Origin: a virus
Taxonomy: Duplodnaviria; Heunggongvirae; Uroviricota; Caudoviricetes
Length of the DNA: 64,000 nt
Strand: one strand, 5' to 3'
Virus record (IMG/VR): IMGVR_UViG_3300045988_007243
Shown here: piece by piece, positions 49,130 through 51,063 of the stretch
Numbering within the stretch: position 1 is the first letter of the stretch
Layout: every line of letters begins with the position of its first letter
The notes under the pieces: generated by a model
What the model saw: only the letters and a program-made list of their open reading frames with translations
The model's database searches: none
What the model was told of the DNA's origin: nothing
Position numbers and translations under genes: made by a program

Positions 49130-49518
49130 CATAGAAAATTTGGTGAGTATACTGAGCAGCATAAACCAACGGGTACTCACCAGCATCACTTAAGAGTCTT
49201 CTAAGAGGGTTTTTAAGTGATGTTCGGTAGGGTTCGGTTCGGTTGGGTTTAGTATGGTCTGGTATGGCTGGGTTGGGTCTGGTTTGGTGAGGGTAGTTAG
49301 TCTCAACTACATTAAAATGAGACTTACCTTTTTAAAAGGTCTTTAAACAGGGTATTTTAATGAGGTATTGCACGGTGTAGTTTGGTTGGGTGGGGTAAGG
49401 TTTGGTGTGGTGTGGTGAGGTATGGGTGGATGGTAGTAGCCACGTTAAAAATCTACCAAGTTTCTAAAGAGTCTTCTGTTGAGGGTTCTTTACAAACAAC
49501 TTAACAATCAACTAAAGT
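49130..49518 (+). repeat. Structured repeat cluster A: two units of conserved box, G/T-rich block and hairpin with conserved loop
   Basis: Units share GAGGGT(N)TTTTAA(T/G)GAGG boxes, 55-65 nt GGT-rich C-poor blocks, and hairpins AGTCTCA-ACTACATTAAAA-TGAGACT and TGGTAG-TAGCCACGTTAAAAAT-CTACCA. Confidence 0.6.
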
Positions 49519-49533
49519 GTGGAGCTAAATACT

Positions 49534-50121
49534 ATGAAACTGTTAAATATCAAAATCACTGGTACTCGTCCTTTCTTGAGCCATAACGATACGTTGTCAG
49601 ACCCATTAAACCCTCTGACAAAATATCACAAGTCTCTGTCCAGTAAACGTAAAAAGACTGACGAAGACTATGCGCTCTTAGCAGAAAGCCAACTAGTAAC
49701 TTCCTGTTACTACGACGAGCAACTTGGTTTTGTTATGAACGGTGAGATGATTGAGGCTTGTATTAAGTCTGGTGCAAAACTCAACAAACTTGGTAAGGTA
49801 ATTGACCGAGCCATTATGCTGACAGATGTAGTCTTCCCAATGACTATCAAGAACTGTCCAGCAAACCCACAAGAACTTGCTAAGAATCCAGATTTTATCT
49901 ATGCTAAATCTGTTAAGATTGGTACAGCACGAGTTATGAGCTACCGTCCAATCTTCCGTGATTGGTCTGTAGAGTTTGGTTTGATGTTCGATGAAGAGCA
50001 AATTACCCGAGAGGAACTCCTGATGGTTCTGGAAAATGCTGGCAACCTTTGTGGTGTAGGTGATTGGCGTCCACGCTTTGGTCGTTTTTCTGTAGAAGTT
50101 ATTTCAGAAGGTAACGTTTAA
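49534..50121 (+). CDS. Hypothetical protein (cassette gene 1 between the repeat clusters)
   Basis: Start set at ATG after GTGGAG RBS; 195 aa; no recognisable motif. Confidence 0.5.
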
Positions 50122-50123
50122 TT

Positions 50124-50564
50124 ATGAATACAAAAGCATTAGCAGCAAAGTTTAGTTACGGTGACACTGTATCACATTCTGAGATGGACACCTTCTTAGG
50201 TATTGTGAAGCCAACTTATCAAGGTGACATTGTTAAGTACGAAGATGAAATGAAGGCTTATGCACTTACACGTCTAAACCGACTTGAGAAGTTTATTGAA
50301 AAGCTTCTTAAAGAAGAGAAGATTTATCTAGTTGCTTCAATGGGTGTCGGTTATCGTGTGGTTGAACCTAAACATCAAGCAACTATTGCAAAACGTAAAA
50401 TGTCTGGTAAGATTGGTCGTGCTTTAAAGCAAGCCACTCAAGCAATTGAGAATGTGAATACTATGGCACTTAGTCATCAAGAACGTTCACGACTGATTGA
50501 ACAGCAAAACCATTTAGCTGCTATGAAAGCTAACATTAACAAGCAACGTAGAAAACCTTTCTAA
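50124..50564 (+). CDS. Hypothetical protein (cassette gene 2)
   Basis: ORF, 146 aa. Confidence 0.5.
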   Translation: MNTKALAAKFSYGDTVSHSEMDTFLGIVKPTYQGDIVKYEDEMKAYALTRLNRLEKFIEKLLKEEKIYLVASMGVGYRVVEPKHQATIAKRKMSGKIGRALKQATQAIENVNTMALSHQERSRLIEQQNHLAAMKANINKQRRKPF

Positions 50565-51063
50565 GTTGACTAGGTAGCCTCTTCGGAGGCTCCTTTTTAA
50601 AAGGTCTTTAAGAGGGTCTTTTAATGAGGTACGGCGCGGTTAGGTAAGGTCTGGTAGGGTAGGGTGAGGTTTGGTAAAGTGCGGGTAGTTAATCGGAGCT
50701 ACATTAAAATCCGATTATATCACTTAAGAGTCTTCTAAGAGGGTTTTTAAGTGAGGTGTGGCACGGTAATGCTAGGTAGGGTCAGGTCAGGTCAGGTGAG
50801 GTAAGGTATGGGTAGTTAGTCTCAGCTACATTAAAATGAGACTCACCTTTTTAAAAGGTCTTTAAAGAGGGTCTTTTAATAAGGCGGGGTGCGGCTCGGT
50901 CTGGTTGTGTGATGTTCGGCTTGGTTAGGTAATGTATGGAAGGATGGCAGTAGCCTTATAAAAAATCTGCCAAATAAGCTATAAAATCTGTTGACAAGTC
51001 AGGCGTTATAGCTTATTTTTATACTCAATGTAATACAAAATTTAATATAACTTTGAGGTCATT
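50565..51063 (+). repeat. Structured repeat cluster B: three units of conserved box, G/T-rich block and hairpin with conserved loop
   Basis: Hairpins AATCGGA-GCTACATTAAAA-TCCGATT, AGTCTCA-GCTACATTAAAA-TGAGACT and TGGCAG-TAGCCTTATAAAAAAT-CTGCCA; stems covary relative to cluster A while loops are conserved; ends with a TTGACA promoter for 51064. Confidence 0.6.

Follow-up and report, generated by a model that had tools for sequence, protein, structure and literature searches.

The Viral Interference Programmable Repeat (VIPR) system was reported in two 2026 bioRxiv preprints from one group, and it consists of vipr, which encodes a minimal RAMP protein related to Cas5/6/7, an accessory vap gene, and flanking guide RNAs called vrRNAs (10.64898/2026.04.26.720920, 10.64898/2026.04.26.720927). 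Here we compare with it a locus in a 64,000-nt stretch of the virus record IMGVR_UViG_3300045988_007243 (the window, to which all coordinates refer unless a relative or satellite is named), in which five structured repeat units surround a two-gene cassette between positions 49,130 and 51,063. According to the preprints, a vrRNA is about 100 nt long and is composed of 9-16 YNNGG repeats and an invariable tail, which is a pseudoknot in the SUSP1 clade (10.64898/2026.04.26.720920, 10.64898/2026.04.26.720927). Each Vipr protomer binds one GGY triplet and flips it out, a helical filament is formed along the repeat tract, and the 3' pseudoknot, which was resolved by cryo-electron microscopy, caps the SUSP1 filament. 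The NN dinucleotides pair with double-stranded DNA with every third target base skipped, typically the wobble position in published targets, and transcription is repressed with no need of a protospacer adjacent motif (PAM). In SUSP1, four vrRNAs were found by small RNA sequencing, and Vipr pull-down was reported together with GFP and phage assays, in which DNA targeting acted in trans and was reprogrammable. In addition, vap1 enhances protection, and the vap genes of type II systems are predicted to encode DNA-binding proteins (10.64898/2026.04.26.720920, 10.64898/2026.04.26.720927).

Class 1 CRISPR-Cas, in which a Cas7 filament is assembled on the CRISPR RNA, shares several features with VIPR. 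In both, RAMP-fold protomers polymerise on the guide RNA and a thumb flips bases periodically, the variable guide is capped by a conserved structured handle, and the arrays have structured, conserved separators. However, VIPR has a period of 5, with three bases sequestered and two read, compared with a period of 6 with one base flipped in CRISPR, and it differs further in its 1-nt skip, its location on phages and, for type II, the lack of Cas1/Cas2, of a PAM and of a nuclease. The relationship of the two systems is at the level of the RAMP fold, and the preprint authors propose that VIPR is older than CRISPR (10.64898/2026.04.26.720920, 10.64898/2026.04.26.720927). The window locus itself does not have the make-up of a CRISPR-Cas system: there are two genes, with no Pfam match above noise, and the guides are coded in pentamers, with no contiguous spacers.

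We read this locus as a type II VIPR system of the SUSP1 clade in a Felix O1-like myophage, known here from sequence alone, and assign this reading a probability of about 0.93. The analysis shows that no sequence-level component of the SUSP1 VIPR system is missing from the locus and that, under the published skip rule, which was re-derived independently, its guides match a family of phage satellites found in E. coli chromosomes. The element is already described, and the window carries a near-identical member of the published SUSP1 clade; a preliminary description of the window, made from the letters, had known of no described element of such form, a statement that was overtaken by the two 2026 preprints. 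The gene pair, its place with the DNA ligase gene on one side and the phrog_4332 gene on the other, the upstream promoter, the box hairpins, the GGY/NN tracts, the pseudoknot tail types and the target class (E. coli satellite phage) are all the same as in SUSP1. In contrast, the window has two upstream vrRNAs, compared with one in SUSP1, as well as different NN guides and a Felixounavirus rather than a Suspvirus backbone. When SUSP1 was searched with the unit profile introduced below, one upstream and three downstream units were found, equal to the four vrRNAs of the published small RNA sequencing. The source virus is assigned to the Felix O1-like myophages, with a Felixounavirus backbone, by comparison of positions 47000-53000, which match 260 phage records, mostly of Felixounavirus, 204 of them at 90-95% identity.

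Genes, guide tracts and RNA structures of the locus

The system was identified because a PDB sequence search returned SUSP1 Vipr. The product of gene 49534-50121 (vipr, plus strand), a RAMP-family protein of 195 aa, matches PDB 36pp, 'SUSP1 Vipr protein', over its full length with an E value of 1.5e-127, and 190 of the 195 residues are identical (97%). The residues named as GGY or DNA contacts in the structure preprint are present in the window protein, namely H17, K33, R39, E71, M72, K82, K88, R138, C173, D177, W178 and R179 in the numbering made in this analysis. The next gene (50124-50564, plus strand) encodes 146 aa, of which 145 (99%) are identical to the product of the SUSP1 gene directly 3' of vipr, and from this operon position it is taken to be vap1, for Vipr accessory protein; the resulting vipr-vap layout is that of the VIPR description. 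The cassette, which had been reported as having no recognisable function, can now be described as encoding Vipr (PDB 36pp) and a putative Vap1 homologue. In Pfam, nothing above noise was found for either cassette gene or for the neighbours, the TRAP and ToxN families included (E up to 1), and PHROGs gave only function-unknown families in the cassette region, where Vipr corresponds to phrog_4652.

All five repeat units lie on the plus strand, two of them 5' of gene 49534 and three 3' of gene 50124, and a repeat search of the window returned them as a five-copy family with starts at 49185, 49328, 50592, 50719 and 50847. When the whole 64-kb window was scanned, GG at a fixed 5-nt phase (at least 7/12) was found only at the five unit tracts, and the exact loop motif CTACATTAAAAT occurs in the window only in units A, C and D. 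The five-unit observation was thereby confirmed as real and far beyond chance, and the features reported earlier for the two units before and the three units after the cassette were all recovered at their positions.

For comparison across relatives, the homologous region was taken from 17 phages (Felixounavirus, Mooglevirus and Suspvirus), which gives 18 loci with the window, and a profile made from the five window units returned 73 units in these loci, all on the gene strand and all in the ligase-side interval. The units are 115-162 nt long in steps of 5, and their flanks are near-invariant, with a centre that is hypervariable even between phages otherwise 90-95% identical. The tract follows a strict 5-nt period of GGY-NN, with 8-17 full pentamers across the loci and 11-14 NN in the window units, in place of the GGT words with two- or three-base spacers that had been proposed at first. 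Among 63 unique tracts, pentamer position 4 is G in 97.8% and position 5 is T or C in 98.8%, position 3 is G in 81%, T in 12% and A in 7%, and positions 1 and 2 (NN) are near-uniform. Taken modulo 5, the tract length has the same value in 70 of 72 units, and phase-breaking indels are absent. The G/T-rich block is the functional core of the unit, a guide in a GGY/NN code, rather than filler, and the array would evolve through changes in NN and through gain or loss of whole pentamers. A role of the tracts as Shine-Dalgarno sequences or a ribosome sponge was ruled out, the NN being near-uniform with no enrichment of GA or AG.

The locus follows the DNA ligase gene (47838-48941), its 5' neighbour, in the order promoter, two units, two genes, terminator, three units and terminal hairpin, and all of its features are on the plus strand. 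A predicted sigma-70-type promoter (TTGACA, 16 nt, TATACT; 49126-49153; 11/12 matches in a consensus scan) is located 5' of the first vrRNA array and vipr-vap, and its sequence is also present 5' of the first unit in relatives with printed intergenic sequence. A box I hairpin (49184-49220; 18 bp including 4 G-U, from RNA folding and conservation) precedes vrRNA A (49221-49324), which has a 70-nt GGY/NN tract with 14 NN (49221-49290) and a pseudoknot tail (49291-49324). A box II hairpin (49327-49364) precedes vrRNA B (49365-49458), with a 59-nt tract of 12 NN (49365-49423) and a tail (49424-49458) in which the first stem (S1) is GTGG/CCAC and the second (S2) TGGTAG/CTACCA. The third hairpin, box III (49460-49497), supported by its minimum free energy (MFE), follows the tail of vrRNA B and precedes the ribosome-binding site of vipr. 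Behind vap1, terminator scan and reading gave an intrinsic terminator (50576-50598), the T-tract of which enters the 5' arm of the next box II (50592-50628, from RNA MFE). This box precedes vrRNA C (50629-50716), composed of a 54-nt tract with 11 NN (50629-50682) and a tail with S2 AATCGGA/TCCGATT (50683-50716). After vrRNA C come box I (50719-50754) and vrRNA D (50755-50843; 55-nt tract with 11 NN, 50755-50809; tail, 50810-50843), and then box II (50846-50883) and vrRNA E (50884-50972; 54-nt tract with 11 NN, 50884-50937; tail with S1 AAGG/CCTT and S2 TGGCAG/CTGCCA, 50938-50972). The downstream array is closed by a terminator-like terminal hairpin (AAATAAGCTATAA ... TTATAGCTTATTTTT) with a T-tract (50972-51020, by direct reading), which is conserved in relatives with printed sequence, including phage Si3, which has no cassette. 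The loop of this hairpin holds the -35 (TTGACA) of the promoter predicted by promoter scan for gene 51064 (50991-51019), so that the signals that end the vrRNA array and those that start the next gene overlap.

Existing resources give little on these elements. In Rfam, nothing meaningful was found at 48000-52000 (E up to 10), and none of seven other array-bearing loci had a match at the gathering score. The GenBank records of relatives hold at most a bare repeat_region feature at the locus, with no description, and the direct repeats given in the Felix O1 genome paper are different ones, these units not being among them.

The 3' element of the unit was first described as a hairpin with a conserved loop and a covarying stem. 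The covariation was upheld, and the simple hairpin has to be replaced by an H-type pseudoknot, in which the loop pairs with 4 nt upstream of the stem. Three S1 variants (GTAG/CTAC, GTGG/CCAC and AAGG/CCTT) and five S2 variants (AGTCTCA/TGAGACT, AATCGGA/TCCGATT, TGGTAG/CTACCA, TGGCAG/CTGCCA and TTGTCG/CGACTA) were found, all of them compensatory, and the pairs of 28 unique tails comprise 287 Watson-Crick pairs, 2 G-U pairs and 6 mismatches. Similarly, the conserved 5' box is present and is more than a sequence box, being itself a hairpin of 16-18 bp with compensatory changes, which occurs in three paralogous types (I, II and III) with covarying outer stems and several G-U pairs. Box I is near-invariant across loci, and at 49184-49220 it has an RNA MFE of -18.1 kcal/mol (z -6.1) on the plus strand and -9.1 on the minus strand; the corresponding values are -11.7 kcal/mol (z -2.6) and -5.2 for box II (50592-50631) and -13.6 kcal/mol (z -3.5) and -8.9 for box III. 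The inner stem of box III, GAGUCUUC/GAGGGUUC, is identical to that of box I, the outer stem covaries, and the box is present in 16 loci. The boxes fold well only as plus-strand RNA, and a conserved, covarying plus-strand hairpin stands after each vrRNA tail, either one of the three boxes or the terminal hairpin. The earlier suggestion of small structured RNAs or protein-bound elements is borne out by the Vipr identity (PDB 36pp) together with these covarying structures.

Two relatives have unusual boxes. In Citrobacter phage Moogle (L003 3135-3296; L numbers are our handles for the retrieved sequences), the apical loop of box I has an insertion of about 20 nt with both arms intact, and in Salmonella phage DaR-2019a (L006 1305-1345), the 5' arm of box II is apparently part-duplicated in tandem, with pattern matches at 1318, 1329 and 1340, 11 nt apart. 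A sigma-70 promoter in the box was ruled out, since the -10-like hexamers have no A at position 2 and the promoter scan was negative there, as well as by the loop insertion of Moogle and the covarying arms. A mini-ORF starting at the ATG before the tail was ruled out as well, the ATG being variable (GA, GC, AA, GT, TT).

Guide matches in satellites of E. coli

A family of phage satellites was located in E. coli through its homologue of the SUSP1 baseplate gene gp017, which marks the family in 474 of 5426 complete genomes of this species. On the chromosomes (L140-L145), the satellite is an island of about 11-12 kb that has two serine recombinases, one small and one large, together with genes for a tape measure and a baseplate protein, and three or more integration sites are known from these sequences, namely yciI-tonB, the interior of a DUF72 gene near yecN, and a position beside dinB. 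When the E. coli genomes were searched by BLAST with the locus itself, an 83-nt vrRNA-like stretch was the sole match. Using the NNx (1-nt-skip) rule, the NN strings of all units were searched against about 73 kb of DNA from six satellites and one remnant, with skips of 0, 2 and 3, flanking chromosomal DNA and shuffled guides as controls, and a match of 80% was taken as the criterion for a target, as in the preprint. Four of the five window guides pass this criterion, matching satellites at 86-95% of NN, and the controls gave 14-19 matches, lower than the targets except for a tie at guide B. Expressed as a share of NN, the controls and the window itself reach 64-77% for four guides, and the best shuffle of guide B reaches 79%.

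The guide of vrRNA A (guide A, and likewise for the others) matches 25 of 28 NN bases, with the first 12 dinucleotides perfect, at 2821-2861 of L146, a satellite from IMG/VR; it had no match in the six E. coli satellites first sampled, and its exact 20-base gapped pattern gave a single IMG/VR match, in a satellite of the same family. Guide B matches 19/24 (79%) at one homologous site of three satellites (L145 5490-5524, L142 5265-5299 and L140 10153-10187), and three of the five mismatched bases are in the two tail-proximal NN. Guide C matches 20/22 at L145 7073-7104 and L141 7061-7092, about 50-90 nt upstream of a satellite gene that is annotated as 'transposase' in L145 and as a hypothetical protein in L141. 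The targets of guide D are inside a small satellite ORF, with 21/22 at L144 6426-6457 and 20/22 at both L142 6315-6346 and L146 3647-3678, and the controls of this guide score 15-17. Guide E matches 19/22 at L144 5338-5369 and L143 5395-5426, and its site extends across the start of a small ORF of the satellite. The satellite targets are located at 5-7 kb of the element, within small ORFs and, in one case, close to a promoter. No self-target was found in the window, where the best match of the guides is 64-77%.

When the guides of all 18 phage loci were considered, 36 of 60 unique guides reached at least 80% once the IMG/VR satellite L146 was added. The tail-proximal NN behaves differently from the rest: it is AT in 43 of the 60 guides, and it matches the target in 50%, compared with 93-98% at most internal positions.

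Some satellites bear a vrRNA of their own. In L138 (14991-15090) and L145 (2559-2670, minus strand), it has the phage-type pseudoknot tail with S2 TTGTCG/CGACTA, a predicted sigma-70 promoter lies directly upstream, and there is no 5' box. A tblastn search found no Vipr homologue in seven E. coli satellite sequences, so these vrRNA-bearing satellites would need the Vipr of the helper phage. One satellite guide matches other satellites at 21/24.

Noncoding DNA elsewhere in the window also resembles the satellites. Positions 6563-6613 are 98% identical over 51 nt to satellite L145, positions 6687-6739 are 81-90% identical to satellites L138, L142 and L145, and CAACTGTACAGACACCTT at 6813-6830 is also found just upstream of the vrRNA in satellite L138. 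These shared segments suggest that the satellite copies regulatory signals of the helper phage. The segments are located in about 1.4 kb of noncoding DNA (5900-7300) with dense short iterated motifs and several 9-31-nt arrays found by Tandem Repeats Finder. For example, CTTAACAR occurs 31 times in the window, compared with 9.4 expected, and 14 copies are between 6005 and 6982. This region may be an origin or a regulatory hub.

Distribution in relatives and other viruses

The vipr-vap cassette was found in 118 Felix O1-like phage records, 108 of them at 95-99% identity, with its genes annotated as hypothetical in all inspected records, and 231 phage records have at least one vrRNA-like unit. 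The cassette and the extra units are present or absent together, Si3 and EC6 being phages that lack them, and the module proposed in the preliminary description is supported by this distribution. In both Si3 and EC6, the DNA ligase gene is followed by one unit and then by the downstream gene, which is the single retained unit that the proposed synteny comparison had predicted for relatives with no cassette. The lone unit is chimeric, combining box I of the first unit with the tail type of the last unit, and such a chimera is the expected product of deletion by recombination between units. In these orphan units (Si3, L005 3000-3122; EC6, L015 2600-2714), the first G of GGY is often T or A (5/11 and 4/9 repeats, respectively), and the orphan guide has no satellite match (73-78%); the unit may be decaying after loss of the protein.

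Using the DNA pattern (GGTNN)6GGT alone, 120 loci were chosen among the matches listed for IMG/VR. The matches listed comprise microsatellites and many heterogeneous pentamer arrays in contigs of 20-234 kb, and a Vipr homologue is present in the fetched flank of 33 of the 120 loci, a spread that agrees with the diversity reported in the preprint.

Several further observations were made in these records. The jumbo-size IMGVR_UViG_3300029288_001872 (L024-L027, 189,632 bp) has 13 or more pattern matches, which fall in separate, heterogeneous (NNGGY)n arrays at several loci, and tblastn found no Vipr homologue in its fetched flanks. In another virus family (L020 6100-6500; L137, minus strand, 3380-3850), 6-8 pentamer arrays stand directly 3' of a Vipr-like gene, with the phase-breaking linker GGTAAGGCTAATGGGT as the sole separator, no hairpin, and a strong terminator at the end, which is a different architecture. 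The record GU169904.1, 'Staphylococcus phage SA1' (L016, 147 kb, UNVERIFIED_ORG), has a complete Felix O1-like ligase-VIPR region and is probably chimeric or mislabelled. In several relatives, such as phage tootiki (L001 1846-3143), the DNA ligase is annotated as two CDSs.

Alternative readings and significance

Several points weigh against a SUSP1-clade VIPR system. Guide B reaches only 79% in the sampled satellites and the best shuffled guide ties with it at 19; what supports this guide is that three satellites have the match at the same homologous site. The base skipped by guides D and E is codon position 2 of annotated ORFs, compared with the wobble position given as typical in the preprint. 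In the promoter and terminator scans, the downstream array had no consensus sigma-70 promoter of its own, and it sits past an intrinsic terminator. In addition, the supporting literature consists of preprints.

Other explanations of the units were considered against the same evidence. The complementary strand had been likened to Rho utilisation (rut) sites, and in that case the minus strand of the blocks, C-rich and G-poor, would serve to end antisense transcription, with the hairpins as pause or terminator elements. The composition is indeed rut-like, as each block reads (R-C-C-N-N)n over about 60 nt of the minus strand and contains hardly any G. However, Rho recognises Y-C at its primary sites, where the 3' C matters most, and the bases that are invariant on the minus strand are R-C, complementary to G4-Y5, followed by a C (the complement of position 3) that is least conserved, at 81%. 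The exact 5-nt phase is strictly kept although a rut site needs none, the box hairpins need plus-strand G-U pairs and lose half of their stability on the minus strand, and the blocks are accounted for by a solved protein-RNA complex; we consider the Rho reading highly improbable. The same very low probability is given to a role at the DNA level, in which the units would be R-loop-prone replication origins or arrays of primase sites. A strong predicted promoter lies upstream, the locus is just past the DNA ligase gene with a DNA polymerase annotated about 3 kb upstream in relatives, the GC skew of the blocks is extreme, and the words GGGTC and TGGTC resemble T7 primase sites. Many relatives, however, have a single unit, and Si3 and EC6 have no cassette, so the array is dispensable for replication; moreover, hypervariable NN, a strict phase and covarying G-U RNA structures are not required of an origin, and the NN match foreign DNA under a specific gapped rule.

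Protein-binding RNAs that act in cis, as leaders or sponges of the TRAP type, or a type III toxin-antitoxin system would also account for part of the design, and these are scarcely more probable than the two readings above. In the trp leader, about 11 triplets spaced by 2 nt stand between a 5' hairpin and a 3' structure, and in Bacillus one triplet is bound per TRAP subunit, with about 55 nt between hairpins, which resembles the units; Vipr is likewise reported to bind one triplet per protomer. The repeat number of 8-17 is unlike a closed ring of fixed size, though, and TRAP differs in forming a closed 11-mer on GAG/UAG, in attenuating in cis and in having spacers that carry no information; in Pfam, the cassette has no TRAP homologue. 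ToxIN and the phage-borne pseudo-ToxI resemble the locus in their tandem pseudoknot-forming RNA repeats of variable copy number next to a small protein gene. However, the ToxI repeats are 36 nt long, are not pentameric, are cut by the toxin and inhibit it, compared with a VIPR RNA that guides DNA binding, and Vipr is outside the ToxN family by Pfam, where neither TRAP nor ToxN was matched at E up to 1. Hypervariable NN with 86-95% matches to a satellite genome would serve no purpose in a sponge or attenuator, and the published assays show trans-acting, reprogrammable targeting of DNA. Chi-like sequences, G-quadruplexes, telomere-like repeats and pairing with tRNA 3' ends had also been considered, and these ideas were dropped after the Vipr identity and the target matches were obtained.

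If the locus operates as a VIPR system, its vrRNAs would be bound by a Vipr filament, the NN would read satellite DNA with the 1-nt skip, transcription would be silenced, and Vap1 would enhance the effect. The five guides of this phage would silence early or regulatory genes of the satellite that parasitises it, and the hairpins between guides would mark the boundaries at which a polycistronic transcript is cut into single vrRNAs. We further propose, tentatively and at slightly less than an even chance for the proposal as a whole, that the post-tail hairpins are processing or boundary signals, the counterpart of CRISPR-repeat hairpins, cut by a host RNase or by Vipr, that the tail-proximal NN is part of the handle, and that satellites borrow the helper's Vipr against rival satellites. 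In the available preprint text, the inter-guide hairpins, the non-guide tail-proximal NN and vrRNA-bearing satellites without vipr are not discussed, and the word 'hairpin' appears once in the first preprint, in a legend on the tail, and not in the second.

In conclusion, VIPR recognises DNA through guide RNAs in a newly reported way, with a gapped two-of-five code, no PAM and one protein of about 20 kDa, and its system-defining features in this window were flagged independently by a sequence-only reader. The VIPR identity gives a function to two genes annotated as 'hypothetical' and to intergenic DNA of about 900 nt that had no annotation, and it predicts which satellite genes would be silenced by this phage. 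Felix O1-like phages are in wide use, and for phage therapy and typing, VIPR content may set the performance of these phages on satellite-bearing hosts.

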